Source: an uncultured bacterium (GTDB lineage: Bacteria; Patescibacteriota; Minisyncoccia; Phycocordibacterales; Phycocordibacteraceae). From it: a DNA stretch of 64,000 nucleotides. Where the stretch lies: contig CAIJZI010000005.1 of assembly GCA_903825105.1 (NCBI GenBank), positions 18,821 through 82,820 of the forward strand, given 5' to 3'. Shown here piece after piece: positions 11,126 to 30,872 of this stretch; the stretch's first letter is position 1, and each line of letters opens with the position of its first letter. The position numbers and the translations under genes are program-made. A model generated the notes under the pieces. It saw nothing but the letters and a program-made list of their open reading frames with translations, did no database searches and was not told the origin of the DNA.

Positions 11126-12943
11126 ATGGCATTACTCGATTTCCTAAATAATAAAAAAGAAAAAGAACGGGAAATAATTCCTGTGCTTCCAAAAGATATT
11201 TATAAGCAGGGAACACTAGACTTGGTAGACACTATAGCGCCAACAGCGCTTCTCGTTGGCTCGCGCGAATTACAACTGGGAGAAAAGTTTGTGCGCGCTT
11301 TTTATACCATTTCATATCCACGATTTCTTTCTGATAGTTGGTTCTCGCCGATTATAAATCTCGACAAGGTTCTCGACGCGTCTATATTCATTCACCCCGT
11401 AGAGACAGAGCAGGCGCTTCGTGGATTCCAGAAAAAAGTCGCCGAAGTACAAAGTCAAATCAGCGAGCGTGAATCAAAAGGCCTTGTGCGCGACCCAATG
11501 CTCGACACAGCATACCAAGATCTCGAGAATTTAAGAAACGACCTCCAACAGGCTCAAGAAAAGCTCTTTGATGTCGGACTCTATTTGTCACTTTATGGTG
11601 ATACGAAAGAAGAGATTGATAAAACAGAAGGGGACATACGCGGCATTCTCGACGCAAAATTGGTGTATACGAAGCCAGCACTCTTCCAACAAGAGCAGGG
11701 ATTCCGTTCCTGCCTCCCGCTCGGAACCGATGAACTTTTGGTCAATTCTAAACTAAATTCGTCGCCACTCTCTTCACTTTTCCCCTTCGTCTCTTTCGAT
11801 CTCACGAGCGACCGTGGCATTTTGTATGGTATAAACAGACACAACTCTTCGCTTGTTCTCTTCGATCGTTTCTCGCTCGAAAATTATAATTCAGTCATAT
11901 TCGCCAAATCAGGTTCTGGTAAGTCGTATGCGACGAAGCTCGAAATCTTGCGTTCGCTTATGTTTGGTACCGATGTTATTGTCATCGACCCAGAACGAGA
12001 ATATGACCAGCTCGCTGAATCGACAGGGGGTCGCTCATTTCACATCTCTCTTTCTTCAGAACATCACATCAATCCGTTTGACCTGCCTCCAGTAAAAGAG
12101 GATGAAGACCCGAAAGATATTCTGCGTTCAAACATCATCGCTCTCGTAGGGCTCTTCCGTATTATGCTTGGCGGTCTCACACCAGAAGAAGATTCTATTA
12201 TCGATCGTGCGATTAGCGAGACCTACGCACTGAAAGACATCACTGGAGACGCTGACTTTACTGGTGCCGAATCGCCGCTACTTTCAGATTTTGAACAAGT
12301 TCTTTCGGGCATGGAAGGGAGCGAGTCGCTCGTCGAGAGACTTTCGAAGTATACGCGCGGGAGCTGGTCAGGCTTTATGAATCAGCCCACCAATATCGAC
12401 CTCAAACAACAATTCGAAATTTTCTCGGTACGCGATATGGAGGATGAGCTTAAGCCAGTGGCGATGTATATCATCACACACTTCATCTGGAATGCGATAC
12501 GCAGAGAGGTTAAGAAGCGCCTGCTGGTTATCGACGAGGCGTGGTGGATGATGAAGAGCGAGGATACCGCGAGCTTCTTGTATTCACTCGCGAAGCGTGG
12601 GCGTAAATATTACATTGGGGTCTGCACCATAACACAAGAAGTTGAAGATTTCGTTAATTCACAATATGGGAGAGCGATATTGAATAATTCATCACTCCAA
12701 CTCCTATTGAAACAGTCTCCGACTTCTATTGATGCACTCCAAAATACTTTTAAATTAACCGATGAGGAAAAATATCTCTTGCTCGAAGCTGGAGTAGGGG
12801 AGGGGCTCTTCTTCGCCGGACTAAAACATGTCGCTATTAAAATCGTCGCCAGTTACACCGAAGATCAGATTATTACTTCAGACCCGTCGCAGCTTCTCGC
12901 GATAAAGGAAGAGAAGGATCGCCATGCAGCAGAACAAAAGTAG
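11126..12943 (+). CDS. VirB4/TraC-family conjugal-transfer-type ATPase (ATPase domain)
   Basis: Walker A AKSGSGKSY (~11911), Walker B LLVIDEAWWMM with VirB4-hallmark DEAW (12532..12543); 605 aa. Confidence 0.75.
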   Translation: MALLDFLNNKKEKEREIIPVLPKDIYKQGTLDLVDTIAPTALLVGSRELQLGEKFVRAFYTISYPRFLSDSWFSPIINLDKVLDASIFIHPVETEQALRGFQKKVAEVQSQISERESKGLVRDPMLDTAYQDLENLRNDLQQAQEKLFDVGLYLSLYGDTKEEIDKTEGDIRGILDAKLVYTKPALFQQEQGFRSCLPLGTDELLVNSKLNSSPLSSLFPFVSFDLTSDRGILYGINRHNSSLVLFDRFSLENYNSVIFAKSGSGKSYATKLEILRSLMFGTDVIVIDPEREYDQLAESTGGRSFHISLSSEHHINPFDLPPVKEDEDPKDILRSNIIALVGLFRIMLGGLTPEEDSIIDRAISETYALKDITGDADFTGAESPLLSDFEQVLSGMEGSESLVERLSKYTRGSWSGFMNQPTNIDLKQQFEIFSVRDMEDELKPVAMYIITHFIWNAIRREVKKRLLVIDEAWWMMKSEDTASFLYSLAKRGRKYYIGVCTITQEVEDFVNSQYGRAILNNSSLQLLLKQSPTSIDALQNTFKLTDEEKYLLLEAGVGEGLFFAGLKHVAIKIVASYTEDQIITSDPSQLLAIKEEKDRHAAEQK

Positions 12944-25395: not shown

Positions 25396-25637
25396 AAAAA
25401 TAATACGATGCTAACATTCTAGCATAGATTTTTGATCCTGTTCATACTCCTCTAGGCAAGGGCTTGACGGCTTTTGGCGTTTCCCCAAGGATTCTCTGGT
25501 CCGCTACTTCGGTAGTGATGCTGTGGATCTCCTCAGGTGCTACGCCTTCGCCCGCCATTGGCGGGATTTTGCCTTGAGGATTCTGGACGGGATTTGTTCT
25601 TTTGCAAAATCAATCACAAAAAGAAAGGAGAAGAAAA

Positions 25638-25844
25638 GTGGAGCAAACAGAACGGGAGAAAGAGATCGTCAAGAAACTCAGCGAGATGCACAAAAACCAC
25701 ACAACAGACCCTTGGATTTTGTGCGCGGTGGCATTCCATGAATTTGATCCTCAACATACGTACATTGCGGAGTACACCGTACTACAACTACAAGAAGAGC
25801 TGTTTGAGATATGCCACACCCGCGGGGACAAGTGGACGCGGTAA
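25638..25844 (+). CDS. hypothetical small protein (GTG start after AAAGGAG RBS)
   Basis: 68 aa; structured GC-rich leader upstream with terminator-like hairpin at 25550..25570. Confidence 0.35.
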   Translation: MEQTEREKEIVKKLSEMHKNHTTDPWILCAVAFHEFDPQHTYIAEYTVLQLQEELFEICHTRGDKWTR

Positions 25845-25852
25845 AACAGGTT

Positions 25853-25890
25853 AGGCTAGGAGATGATTTTGTCTCCTAGCCTTTCTTTTT
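25853..25890. terminator. hairpin aggctaggagat-gatttt-gtctcctagcct + T-run between convergent small ORF and pilB
   Basis: 12-bp stem. Confidence 0.6.
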
Positions 25891-27559
25891 ACCTTGGCAG
25901 ATCGACAGTACCAGCGACTTCGGAGAGGGAGGTGGCGCCGGCGAGGGCTTTGAGAATGCCGTCTTGTGCCATGGTGAGATAGCCTTGTTTTGTTACCAAT
26001 TTTGCAATTTCATTTTCTGGTGGATTGTCGCGGAGAAAGTTCGCGAGCTCGTCATCCATAAAAATAGCTTCATAGAGACCGACGCGACCTTTGTATCCCG
26101 TCTCATCTTCATTCGCTGGCGAAGGCTCCCAAACCGTTTCTATTTTTTCTGGAATCAAACTTTTATCAGTAATTGTTTCAAAGACTTTTCCAATCATTTT
26201 TTTCTCATCATCGGTGAGTGGGCGTTCTTTTTTCTTTTCTGGGTCGAGCTTTCTTAAAAGGCGTTGTGCCATCGAGACGGTTACCGAAGAACCAAATGAT
26301 TTTGGGTCTGCGCCGAGGTCGACGAGGCGCGGGAAGGTGCCAGCCGCATTGTTGGTGTGAAGGGTAGAGAAGACGAAGTGGCCTGTGAGCGCCGCTTGGA
26401 TAGCGATATTCGCCGTCTCTCCATCGCGGATTTCGCCAACCATGATGATGTCTGGGTCTTGGCGCACAATCGAGCGAAGCCCTTCGGCAAAAGTATATTT
26501 CCCATCAACCACTTGTGTCTGGACAATGCCGTCGAGGTGATATTCAACCGGGTCTTCAATAGTAATTATTTTTATTTCTGGCGTATGGATTTCGCGTAAG
26601 AAAGAATAAAGAGTGGTCGTTTTACCAGAGCCGGTTGGGCCGGTGGTGAGGAGCATGCCGTTTGGTCTTCTAATTTCTGCTTCGAGTCGCGCGAGCAGCT
26701 TCGGGTGAATGCCGAGCTCTTTATACGAAACTTTTGTCGCTTCAGGGTCGAGAATACGCATCACGATTGACTCGCCATAATTGCCAGGGATAAACGAAAC
26801 ACGAATTTCAATCTGATTATTTCCTCGTACAATACTAAAACGCCCGTCTTGTGCGCGATTCGTCACATTCAATTTCATTCCTGAGAGTAACTTGATGCGC
26901 GAATTGAGCTGATGGTAGGTCGCTGGGTCAAATAAATAAGTATCCGAGAGAATACCATCAACACGAAGTCGCAGAAGTGTTTTGTCCTCGCTTGGTTCGA
27001 AGTGAATGTCTGACGAACGAAGAGCGAACGCACCAGCGAAGATTGTTTCAAGTGTGTGAGAAATTCTATCGAGCGATTTTAATGCTGTTATTGAATCGAG
27101 ATCCTGTTTCAATGCACTTTTCGTTTTTATTTCGTCAGTGATTTTCTTAAGGGTTTCTGGTGCAAGGGTGAAGACACCCACTTTTGATTCTGTTGAAAAC
27201 AACAAGTCTTTATATCGAGCAAATGCTTTGTCTAAACTTTTTTTTGAAACAAGGAATTCATTTAGCGTAAATTCGCGTGCGACCAGACCATCTTTCAATT
27301 TTAATAGTGCTGGATTATTTGGATTATGAACGGCGAGAGAGATTGTCTTTGCATTTTTAGCAAAAGCGACCGCTTCAGCTGCGCGCGCCTCTTCTTCTGG
27401 AATAACACGTAGAGCTTCGTTGTCTATTTCTTGGGATGACAAATCAACATAGGCAATGCCATATTTTTGAGAAAGAATTTGTGCGACATCCTCCTCTTCG
27501 CGCTCACGGATAGAAGAAATCTCTTCTTCAGTATGTTTTGAATCAAAAAGTGCGTCCAT
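25889..27559 (-). CDS. pilB: type IV pilus assembly ATPase PilB (GspE family)
   Basis: TGPTGSGKTTTL Walker A, Asp/His boxes, N-terminal GSPII-type domain; 556 aa. Confidence 0.85.
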   Translation of the reverse strand: MDALFDSKHTEEEISSIREREEEDVAQILSQKYGIAYVDLSSQEIDNEALRVIPEEEARAAEAVAFAKNAKTISLAVHNPNNPALLKLKDGLVAREFTLNEFLVSKKSLDKAFARYKDLLFSTESKVGVFTLAPETLKKITDEIKTKSALKQDLDSITALKSLDRISHTLETIFAGAFALRSSDIHFEPSEDKTLLRLRVDGILSDTYLFDPATYHQLNSRIKLLSGMKLNVTNRAQDGRFSIVRGNNQIEIRVSFIPGNYGESIVMRILDPEATKVSYKELGIHPKLLARLEAEIRRPNGMLLTTGPTGSGKTTTLYSFLREIHTPEIKIITIEDPVEYHLDGIVQTQVVDGKYTFAEGLRSIVRQDPDIIMVGEIRDGETANIAIQAALTGHFVFSTLHTNNAAGTFPRLVDLGADPKSFGSSVTVSMAQRLLRKLDPEKKKERPLTDDEKKMIGKVFETITDKSLIPEKIETVWEPSPANEDETGYKGRVGLYEAIFMDDELANFLRDNPPENEIAKLVTKQGYLTMAQDGILKALAGATSLSEVAGTVDLPR

Positions 27560-27657
27560 ATCAATAATAATACACGGATACAGCGGCTCGATAAGTGCGA
27601 TTTGACAATAGTGTTGATTTAAGTATTATTAATTTTGGAAACAGAAGGGGTAATCTG

Positions 27658-27999
27658 ATGAAAATTGTAAAGATTCTCTGTGTTCTTTTCTTCTGTATTT
27701 GTGCGTTCGCCGCGAGCGCGTAGCAGTCGTGCATAACGATAAACGGCGTTCCGTACTGTCCGCAGCGGGCACAACAGGTACCCGCTATGCAACCGGTCGT
27801 TGTGCCTCAGCCAATATGTCCTCTTGGGACGCAGTCTGTAATGACTCAGTACGGGCTTGTGTGCGCCAATATGTACTCACTATACGGACCACAGTACTTT
27901 ATGCCTGTCGTCGTGGGGCGCCGTGCAGTTTTTGTATCGATACAGTTTGGCGGAGGGTATGGCCAGGTCTGTATAGGCAGAAGGTTTTGCATTCAGTAA
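27658..27999 (+). pseudogene. secreted Cys-rich small protein gene interrupted by one in-frame TAG (27721..27723)
   Basis: ATG 27658 after GAAGGGG RBS encodes MKIVKILCVLFFCICAFAASA then TAG; same frame continues as Cys-rich ORF 27724..27999 (track ORF 27787..27999). Confidence 0.4.
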
Positions 28000-28060
28000 T
28001 ACCGTGCGCCCTTCTTTCGTAGGAGGGCGCATTTCTCTTTTCGGCTGTACAATAAAGGGA

Positions 28061-28510
28061 ATGGAAACGAAGGTCCAAAATCTTGAAGAAATGCACGCAG
28101 AAGCAACGCGTTTTCTGGGCGGATTACATAAAAAAGAAGACGGTGCGATGCTGATAACTCTCTCTGGCGAACTCGGAGCGGGGAAGACCGCTTTTGTAAA
28201 AATGATCGCGCAGGAGCTCGGCGTCGATGACTTGGTAACCAGCCCAACGTTCGTTCTCGAGAAGATTTATTCACTTGGAGGTCCGACCTCCAAGTTCGCG
28301 CAGTTCGCGCGTCTTATTCACATAGATGCGTATCGTCTCGAAGATGGAAAAGATTTGTCAGCTATAGGCTTTGATGAAATTTTACAAGATCCAGATAATC
28401 TTATTTTTCTCGAATGGCCAGAAAAAGTTGAGAATAATCTGCCCAAAACCGCCCACAAGATTTCTATAAAAGTTCTTTCTGACGATTCTCGTCTCATTTC
28501 TTATGACTAA
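28061..28510 (+). CDS. tsaE: tRNA threonylcarbamoyladenosine biosynthesis ATPase TsaE
   Basis: LSGELGAGKTAFVK P-loop and TSPTF motif; ATG 28061 after AAAGGGA. Confidence 0.8.
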   Translation: METKVQNLEEMHAEATRFLGGLHKKEDGAMLITLSGELGAGKTAFVKMIAQELGVDDLVTSPTFVLEKIYSLGGPTSKFAQFARLIHIDAYRLEDGKDLSAIGFDEILQDPDNLIFLEWPEKVENNLPKTAHKISIKVLSDDSRLISYD

Positions 28511-30872
28511 AGAATTACAAAAGAAAATAGTGCTCCTTGATACGCATGCGATAATCCATCGCGCTTATCACGCCTTACCGCAGGATTTTACGGGCCCAAA
28601 TGGTGCCCCAACCGGCGCTTTGTACGGTCTTGTTTCGATGCTTTTAAAAATAATCACCGATCTCTCTCCTGATTATATCGTCGCGTGCTACGACCTGCCG
28701 AAGCCAACCATCCGTCACGAAGCGTATGCTGACTATAAGGGTACACGCACAAAAACAGATGATGCGTTGTCACTCCAGATTCAAGAATCGCGCAAAATCT
28801 TTGAAGTTTTTTCGATTCCACTGTATGAAAAAGAAGGTTTTGAGGCAGACGATCTGCTTGGCACCATTGCTTTTAAATTAAAAGAAGATAAAAATACACA
28901 AGTCATTATTGCTTCGGGCGATATGGATACGCTCCAGCTCGTCGAAGGTAAAAAAGTGTGTGTTTACACGCTAAAAAAGGGCATACACGACACTATTTTG
29001 TATGATGAAAAAGCGGTAGAAGCGCGATTTAATTTCTCACCGACGCTTATTCCTGATTGGAAAGGCCTCCGTGGTGACCCCTCTGACAACATAAAAGGTA
29101 TCCCCGGCATTGGAGAAAAGACGGCCACTGAACTCATAACCAATTTCGGTTCAATTGAGAAAATATATACTGTCCTTAAAAAAGGAGATGATGCATTTAT
29201 AAAAAAAGGAATTAAAACGCGTATCATCACTCTCTTAAAAGAACACGAAGAAGATGCGCGATTTTCAAAATCGCTCGCGACGATTCGGCTCGACGCGCCG
29301 ATCGCATTTCATTTGCCCGAACACTCGTGGCGCGAGTCGGTTCATATAGAAAAAGTTTTTAACATTTTTGATGAATTTGGATTTAGATCGCTTCGAGAGC
29401 GAGCGCGCACAACGCTTGGTGTTCGTGAGCGAGAAGATTTTGTCGAGCCAGAACCAGAAATGGTAGACGCTACTCATTTTTCTGAAGCGCAGATTATGCT
29501 CTGGCTTATTTCTTCAGAATTTACGAACCCTTCGCTTGATGACATTCTCGCTTTTACCAAAGAGCGCACCTTTGATCCAGCTTATAAAGAACTTTTTAAA
29601 CAAATATCAGAAGAAGGGGAGATGCTCGAGGTATACGAAAAAATAGAAAAGCCGCTCATACCGATCGTGCGAGCGATGACCATTTGTGGCATTTCTGTCG
29701 ATCCGGAAGTTTTAAAAGATTTGTCAAAAAAATATGGCGCAGAACTCGAGCGCCTCGAAAAAGAAATTTATAAAATCGCTGGTCACGAATTTAATATTAA
29801 TTCGCCACAACAACTCGGCGTGGTGCTCTTCGATGAATTAAAAATAATTCCCGAACGGCAGAAAAAGACGGCGGGTGGTGCGCGCTCAACGCGCGAGAGC
29901 GAGCTCGAAAAAATTCGTGAAGCAAACCCTATTGTCCCAGCAATTCTTGATTACCGAGAATTGAAGAAACTCCTCTCCACCTATATTGAAAATCTCCAAC
30001 ATTTACTTGATGAAAATGGTCGTCTCCACGCAGAATTTATACAGACCGGTACAACAACAGGGCGCCTCACTTCACAAAATCCAAACCTTCAAAACATCCC
30101 GATCCAATCAGAGCGCGGGCAGGCAATACGACACGCTTTTGTCGCATCTGAAGGATATAAACTCGTATCGCTAGATTATTCACAAATAGAACTACGAATC
30201 GCAGCGATTCTTTCGGGTGATGAAAACTTGTGCGAAATATTTCGTGCCAGTCGCGATGTTCACACTGAAGTTGCTGCACGCGTATTTCATGTGTCGTCAG
30301 AACAAGTAGATGCTGAGATGCGTCGAAGAGCCAAGGTAATTAACTTCGGTATTCTTTATGGAATGGGCATAAACGCACTTCGCGCGCAGTTAAAGACTAC
30401 TACTGCAGAGGCGCATACCTTCTATGAAGAATACTTTGAACAATTTAAAACGCTGTCAGACTATCTCGAGAGCACTAAAGGCTTTGCGCGTAAAAATGGC
30501 TATACCGAAACGCTTTTTGGTCGTCGTCGCCAATTCCCGGAGATGAAATCAACTCTTCCTTATGTGCGCGCTCAAGCAGAGCGAATGGCGATTAATGCGC
30601 CGATACAAGGAACCCAAGCAGACATCATTAAGCTCGCGATGGTACGCGTACACGAAATGCTGGAGAAAAAATATAAAAAGAGCGACGCGAATCTTCTCCT
30701 TACTGTGCACGACGAATTGGTATATGAAGTCCGCGACGCGCTTGTAGAAGAAATCAGTGATGAAATTAAAAAAATTATGGAATCCATTTTACCTCTTGAA
30801 GAAACGCGTGGCGTCCCGCTTATCACAACGATGAAAAAGGGCCCGAACTGGGGCTCAATGGAAACAGTATGA
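28503..30872 (+). CDS. polA: DNA polymerase I
   Basis: 789 aa; 5'-3' exonuclease N-domain and family A polymerase motifs (DYSQIELR, RRxxKxxNFGxxYG, HDE). Confidence 0.9.
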   Translation: MTKELQKKIVLLDTHAIIHRAYHALPQDFTGPNGAPTGALYGLVSMLLKIITDLSPDYIVACYDLPKPTIRHEAYADYKGTRTKTDDALSLQIQESRKIFEVFSIPLYEKEGFEADDLLGTIAFKLKEDKNTQVIIASGDMDTLQLVEGKKVCVYTLKKGIHDTILYDEKAVEARFNFSPTLIPDWKGLRGDPSDNIKGIPGIGEKTATELITNFGSIEKIYTVLKKGDDAFIKKGIKTRIITLLKEHEEDARFSKSLATIRLDAPIAFHLPEHSWRESVHIEKVFNIFDEFGFRSLRERARTTLGVREREDFVEPEPEMVDATHFSEAQIMLWLISSEFTNPSLDDILAFTKERTFDPAYKELFKQISEEGEMLEVYEKIEKPLIPIVRAMTICGISVDPEVLKDLSKKYGAELERLEKEIYKIAGHEFNINSPQQLGVVLFDELKIIPERQKKTAGGARSTRESELEKIREANPIVPAILDYRELKKLLSTYIENLQHLLDENGRLHAEFIQTGTTTGRLTSQNPNLQNIPIQSERGQAIRHAFVASEGYKLVSLDYSQIELRIAAILSGDENLCEIFRASRDVHTEVAARVFHVSSEQVDAEMRRRAKVINFGILYGMGINALRAQLKTTTAEAHTFYEEYFEQFKTLSDYLESTKGFARKNGYTETLFGRRRQFPEMKSTLPYVRAQAERMAINAPIQGTQADIIKLAMVRVHEMLEKKYKKSDANLLLTVHDELVYEVRDALVEEISDEIKKIMESILPLEETRGVPLITTMKKGPNWGSMETV

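Follow-up and report, generated by a model that had tools for sequence, protein, structure and literature searches.

A likely recent nonsense pseudogene of a small exported-protein gene between pilB and tsaE in an uncultured Patescibacterium

A locus lying between pilB and tsaE in the DNA of an uncultured Kaiserbacteria-like Patescibacterium is likely to be a recent nonsense pseudogene, derived from a small, lineage-restricted gene whose product is predicted to have been exported. The window, i.e. the whole stretch of 64,000 nucleotides that was analysed, carries at positions 27602-28042 one complete single-gene cassette, which extends from promoter and ribosome-binding site through the Sec signal peptide and the mature region to TAA stop and terminator, and the putative ancestral product would be a small exported protein. 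One base change, most simply from CAG (Gln) to TAG, would have put a stop at the first codon past the signal-peptidase site, so that ribosomes would release only a signal peptide of 21 residues, and the Cys-loop protein would be lost or made in traces. An actual but ordinary gene inactivation, rather than special decoding, is the most likely account of the locus.

Organization of the interrupted gene

A sigma-70-like promoter was identified on the plus strand at 27602-27629, composed of TTGACA, a 16-nt spacer and TATTAT, with 11 of the 12 consensus positions matched, and this promoter block (TTGACAATAGTGTTGATT) did not differ between the window and the closest relative, L145. A Shine-Dalgarno-like box GAAGGGG, as read from the sequence, was located at 27644-27650 (+) and separated from ATG 27658 by 7 nt, and boxes of AAGGAGG type were found in the homologs where the window has GAAGGGG. 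The 21 codons of the signal-peptide part (27658-27720, +) were translated into MKIVKILCVLFFCICAFAASA, which aligned with the signal peptides of the relatives. They were followed by the premature TAG at 27721-27723 (+), the first codon past the predicted signal-peptidase site, with C as the next base. An ATG at 27658 preceded by a ribosome-binding site, a signal-peptide-like ORF of 21 aa and a TAG at 27721 had already been described in an earlier sequence-only reading of this DNA, and every coordinate was reproduced.

The former mature-protein region, supported by profile matches and by pairwise alignment with L145, occupied 91 codons at 27724-27996 (+), and the natural TAA stop of the broken gene was read at 27997-27999 (+). 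The translation of the frame after the TAG was QSCITINGVPYCPQRAQQVPAMQPVVVPQPICPLGTQSVMTQYGLVCANMYSLYGPQYFMPVVVGRRAVFVSIQFGGGYGQVCIGRRFCIQ. The six Cys counted there by the sequence-only reading were all present, meanwhile its count of 92 codons included the TAA and should be 91 sense codons. In the mature region, the Cys loop CITINGVPYC is joined by a Pro-rich linker to a second one, CPLGT...LVC, behind which come a stretch rich in Tyr, Pro and Gly and the basic C-terminal end GRRFCIQ. Behind the TAA, an intrinsic terminator was found by terminator scan at 28004-28042 (+), composed of a GC-rich hairpin of 12 pairs (28004-28032) and a T run, with a fold of -25.3 kcal/mol (z = -3.3), and hairpin and T run were also present in L010, L110, L127, L130 and L145. 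The divergent left neighbour was pilB, encoding a type II/IV secretion ATPase (25889-27559, minus strand; Pfam T2SSE, E = 1e-102, plus MshEN), and the right neighbour was tsaE (28061-28510, +; Pfam TsaE, E = 3e-30), for which an identical protein, P0016, was on record.

The leader was predicted to be a Sec-type signal, with a basic start MK..K, a core of 12 hydrophobic residues (ILCVLFFCICAF) and then A-S-A, and thus, as read from its residues, it had the basic N-terminus, the core of 10-15 residues and the small residues at -3 and -1 by which substrates of Sec and signal peptidase I are recognized. In basic start, 12-residue core and A-S-A it was like the Sec precursors cleaved by signal peptidase I; unlike them, it met a stop at mature position +1, which left only the signal peptide encoded, and export is a prediction. 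A class III signal peptide of type IV pilin kind (G, then F/M-T-L-x-E), considered because of the pilB neighbour, was absent from the window leader, and so was a lipobox [LVI]-[ASTVI]-[GAS]-C, the window and its closest relatives having AxA sites. The C-terminus of the family (NP-x-D, hydrophobic stretch, basic tail) recalls a sorting signal, an idea that was considered as well and rejected, since no sorting-signal model matched and the C-terminus of the window protein is different.

When 27724-27996 was shuffled, the frame remained open in 1.8% of the shuffles. This argument would be weak alone because long off-frame open stretches, of 60-250 codons, were common in the window. The codon-usage score of the frame after the TAG was 0.02 bits per codon, the best of the three frames, while typical genes scored 0.33, and this score does not help to discriminate either way. 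The longest ORF of the region, 27699-28022 (+; 107 aa, TTG start, Arg-rich), lies in a frame different from that of the real gene; it had no relatives in the fetched loci, was rejected as a real gene and is likely a false gene call. No copy of the sequence surrounding the TAG was found elsewhere in the window, so a template/variable repeat pair of a diversity-generating system was not indicated.

Homologs with an uninterrupted gene

The fused sequence of 112 aa gave no match among 5.8 billion proteins, and a metagenome scan with the mature region of 91 aa returned no relatives. Since the direct protein search was empty, the pilB-tsaE gaps of related loci were inspected, and the family was thus brought to light by synteny first and by profile searches afterwards. 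A small ORF with a signal peptide, one per gap, was present in many of these gaps. The alignment of L010 with the window ran across the TAG (tblastn E = 4e-4, blastp E = 2e-5), then L110, L127 and L130 were recruited after iteration, and P0003-P0015 were added by profile searches in two collections of 5.8 billion and 1.84 billion proteins. The closest relative, L145, was reached via a TsaE neighbour and was 44% identical over 54 aa spanning the stop (E = 5e-9). A total of 19 relatives were recovered, those named being L010 (P0001), L110, L127 (P0002), L130, L145 and P0003-P0015.

All 19 relatives had a single ORF, starting with a Sec-type signal peptide that ended in an AxA-type site (AFA, AYA, MHA and similar). 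In 17 of them the signal peptide was separated by 1-4 residues, mostly D, E or Q, from the loop C-[IV]-x-x-[ND]-G-x-x-[YF]-C, and this first Cys loop was missing only in L130 and P0003. The remaining plan of the family comprised a linker rich in Pro, frequently a second loop C-P-x-G-T...C, then a stretch rich in Tyr, Pro and Gly and finally a basic tail. HMMs were built from 8 and from 17 homologs with the window left out, and each had 27724-27996 (+) as the sole match among 2375 six-frame segments, with E = 2e-6 for 8 sequences and 1.1e-5 for 17 sequences. The match started where the profile has its first Cys, directly past the signal peptide, so the part of the profile that covers the signal peptide is placed before the TAG, at the site of the window's own signal peptide of 21 residues. 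Every relative with readable surroundings had its gene in the slot between pilB and tsaE, and the gene order of the checked relatives was ruvB, pilB (minus strand), small gene, tsaE and polA.

These comparisons indicate that the two halves were formerly one gene and that the split is the derived state, and homology is here the decisive sequence evidence that the arrangement of two ORFs exceeds chance. A recently inactivated gene for a secreted peptide had been the first option of the sequence-only reading, and it gained support from the 19 single-ORF relatives with signal peptides. The comparison of pilB-tsaE loci that it had recommended was carried out, and one uninterrupted signal-peptide ORF was found in the relatives; the opposite outcome, homologs without the signal peptide and conservation of only the ORF from ATG 27787, was not observed.

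ATG 27787 is the first in-frame ATG downstream of the TAG, and it could in principle start a second functional product, a cytoplasmic protein of 70 residues, beside a hydrophobic micropeptide of 21 residues encoded at 27658-27723. Small hydrophobic peptides can be functional, and promoter and ribosome-binding site of the upstream ORF are good. Against such a pair of products, the 21 residues aligned with the usual signal peptides of the family, the homologs had neither Met nor ribosome-binding site at the place of ATG 27787, and the truncated arrangement was conserved in no relative. In addition, a protein started at 27787 would be without the first Cys loop and the export signal. Two functional products are therefore very unlikely, and loss of a single exported-protein gene is the preferred reading.

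Origin of the stop codon

The junction of L145 was M-H-A / Q-Q-P-Q-C (CAA CAG CCA CAA TGC), and that of the window was A-S-A / TAG-Q-S-C (TAG CAG TCG TGC). The TAG was thus opposite a Gln codon (CAA) of L145, and the next codon, CAG, was opposite CAG, so a single C-to-T transition (CAG to TAG) would account for the stop. Direction and identity of this mutation are inferred from one close relative. D or E was present at the corresponding place in other relatives, from which GAG to TAG would likewise be one change. None of the 19 homologs had a stop at the position of the window TAG.

The promoter, the Shine-Dalgarno box, the terminator, the reading frame and all four Cys conserved in the family were intact in the window, and this undecayed state of the rest of the cassette suggests that the inactivation would be recent. 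An intact frame after the TAG is also expected if the gene is still expressed by readthrough, which counts against the pseudogene reading.

A consensus error of sequencing or assembly, or a minority allele, with a real gene that has a sense codon at 27721, could give the same picture, for the window belongs to a metagenome-assembled genome of an uncultured organism, the TAG is one base away from seven sense codons and the remainder of the gene is intact. A second scaffold, L143 (ENA metagenome assembly ERZ18625109), was reached via the window TsaE protein P0016; it carries no gene call in the gap. This separately assembled scaffold of 2161 bp was 100% identical to window positions 26487-28647, with zero differences and the TAG included, so a chance consensus error in one assembly is unlikely, and the sequencing error that had been the second option of the sequence-only reading lost ground. 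No other split genes were noticed among the conserved window genes examined. Sample or reads of L143 may be common with those of the window contig, and L143 leaves a shared artefact and other alleles unaddressed. The exact PilB protein was not on record, a metagenome scan with the PilB N-terminus returned only relatives with no more than 69% identity, and further members of the species besides L143 were not found in these searches. All considered, an artefact or minority allele is quite improbable, and a nonsense mutation present in the genome is favoured.

Decoding of the TAG

Programmed recoding of the TAG, by a suppressor tRNA, by pyrrolysine-type decoding or by a local readthrough signal, would make the full-length precursor the intended product, and was the third option of the sequence-only reading. 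The intact downstream frame and a TAG that falls precisely on the first mature residue speak for it, and nothing more. The case resembles programmed readthrough and reassignment (viral UAG, pyrrolysine, UGA as Gly in Gracilibacteria and Absconditabacteria) in having an open frame behind an in-frame stop; it differs in that the stop is not conserved, a stimulatory structure was lacking and TAG ends essential genes. The absence of any stop at this position in the 19 homologs argues against recoding, and so does the region downstream of the TAG, where no RNA structure was detected when the fold of 27721-27820 was compared with shuffles (z = -0.21) and the TAG region had no match in Rfam. The CUA anticodon was found in none of the 8 tRNAs within the window.

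TAG was also in regular use as a terminator of other genes. The stops of the 70 long ORFs in the window were TAA in 36, TGA in 19 and TAG in 15, and recJ, dnaN, tmk and argS were terminated by TAG with the last Pfam domain running in full through the final positions of its profile, which bears out the earlier remark, made for recJ and tmk, that TAG is a normal stop here. Judged by these ORFs and domain ends, TAG is a genuine stop in this genome. The known reassignment in this radiation is UGA, not UAG (PMC8629427), and in a published screen all known bacterial stop-codon reassignments concern UGA (PMC8629427), which also counts against recoding. Recoding at this locus is therefore extremely unlikely. 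In the window as a whole, TAA was followed by A or T in 32 of its 36 cases.

Another possibility is a leaky stop, by which the gene would be weakened only, a low level of the normal precursor being made through unselected near-cognate insertion and exported. A TAG with C as the next base is a weak context for termination, for which reason the gene may be slightly leaky, and C followed only 4 of the 67 genuine stops in the window. Gln is the commonest residue inserted at UAG in suppressor-free E. coli, and with the TAG opposite Gln in L145, insertion of Gln would restore the ancestral residue. The whole cassette with its conserved Cys was intact, which is predicted equally by a very recent knockout, and the basal rate of readthrough in bacteria mostly lies far below 1%. 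A leaky stop is unlikely as the explanation of the locus. The narrower proposal, that the TAG-C lowers but does not abolish expression and that Gln insertion recreates the ancestral mature N-terminus, is likewise improbable. Any confident peptide from QSCITINGVPYCPQR or from the sequence beyond would support leaky expression.

In readthrough of Salmonella pseudogenes, UAG with adjacent C is the commonest context (PMC9122581). The window gene is like the 'pseudo-pseudogenes' of Salmonella enterica (PMC9122581) in having a lone in-frame stop in an otherwise intact gene, intact expression signals and UAG followed by C; it is unlike them in belonging to an uncultured Patescibacterium and to an uncharacterised family. 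If leaky expression were true, this Patescibacterium would have a 'pseudo-pseudogene' that acts, next to a pilus ATPase gene, as a quantitative switch on the expression of a fast-evolving surface protein. A recent nonsense pseudogene is the reading preferred here, and programmed readthrough found no support.

The pilB-tsaE slot and the protein family

The best PilB relatives were 79-87% identical, and the metagenome-assembled genomes that encode them all bear the label Candidatus Kaiserbacteria, Parcubacteria or Paceibacterota. The order ruvB, pilB, gap, tsaE and polA was widely conserved. The gap itself was examined in 106 syntenic loci (L001-L140), with a small exported ORF in 56, a gap of less than 200 bp without a gene in 42 and another content in 8. 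Since about 40% of the related genomes have no gene in the slot, the gene would be dispensable and its loss tolerated. By a crude pattern match, 38 of the 56 small slot ORFs had a lipobox and 18 an AxA-type site. A Cys pair, a stretch rich in Pro and Tyr and a basic C-terminus were nearly all that the slot proteins had in common, against 60-80% identity in the flanking PilB proteins. From these comparisons the slot is seen as the home of a hypervariable small protein with predicted export, which is turning over and is often absent.

The slot lipoproteins and exported proteins of related Patescibacteria were like the window gene in position, orientation, length (60-180 aa), Cys pair, Pro/Tyr-rich region and basic C-terminus, and the family profile weakly matched the C-terminal part of four of them (L116, L134, L005 and L099). 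They were unlike it in that most had a lipobox (L-x-G-C) instead of the AxA site and almost no sequence in common with the window gene.

The family itself, as far as the searched collections reach, is tiny, uncharacterised and fast-evolving and is found only in Kaiserbacteria-like Patescibacteria. Only 14 representatives at E <= 1e-3 were found among 1.84 billion proteins, and neither the window protein nor its homologs, of which up to 10 were searched, matched anything in Pfam, NCBIfam or PDB. AlphaFold2 modelled the mature part poorly (pLDDT 62.8, pTM 0.26); values of 70-84 were reached only in the N-terminal hairpins, two beta-hairpins at the two Cys loops, which were predicted with moderate confidence. 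Signal peptide and Cys spacing suggest that the product was probably a small exported, disulfide-stabilised protein of the surface or envelope.

Other elements in the window

Between pilB and ruvB (25434-25593, minus strand) lies a conserved element of about 160 nt with RNA-like features. It was near-invariant across 54 fetched loci and located 115-260 nt upstream of the ruvB start in 51 of them, mostly at about 125 nt. Its ends would pair as a long helix around several hairpins, and 94.9% of cells were paired over 45 sequences. Compensatory changes were found in 13 pairs versus 7.0 +/- 1.4 in shuffles, none of 500 reaching the observed number, and the covariation score was 0.156 versus at most 0.053 with partners slid. 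No match to Rfam 15 was obtained for the element even at E <= 10, and by eye it resembled helix 8 of SRP RNA. In most of the 45 aligned loci, a conserved extended -10-like box TG-n-TAGAAT (in the window at 25415-25426, minus strand) preceded the ruvB ATG (25395) by about 20 nt, and there was no obvious Shine-Dalgarno sequence between this box and the ATG. Since this box separates it from the ruvB start, the element has the look of an RNA gene in its own right rather than a leader of ruvB.

The sequence TTTTCGGCTGTACAAT (28036-28051) overlaps the T run of the terminator behind the broken gene and is located about 10 nt upstream of the tsaE ATG. It was kept as TTTTC[AG]GC[GT]GTACAAT in L010, L110, L127 and L145, with a variant ending in GTACACC in L130, and is probably a -10 box which would give tsaE a very short leader or none. 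A perfect hairpin at 25842-25892, directly past the pilB stop, had weak matches to microRNA models on both strands, and is probably the terminator of pilB. Apart from this region, a protein of 605 aa encoded at 11126-12943 contained a TraG/VirD4-type P-loop domain (Pfam P-loop_TraG, E = 2e-27), which suggests a system of conjugation or DNA-uptake kind in this small genome.

Implications

In annotation, a single disrupted gene should be entered here in place of two small ORFs, and ORF 27699-28022 should not be called. The broken gene gives no reason to assume a deviant genetic code in this lineage. The slot protein was altered almost beyond recognition between genomes with PilB proteins of about 80% identity, and such turnover is what surface proteins typically show when selection on them is diversifying or relaxed. 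The slot could thus be of interest for the host or phage interaction of these small-genome bacteria, and the broken copy would be a snapshot of its turnover.
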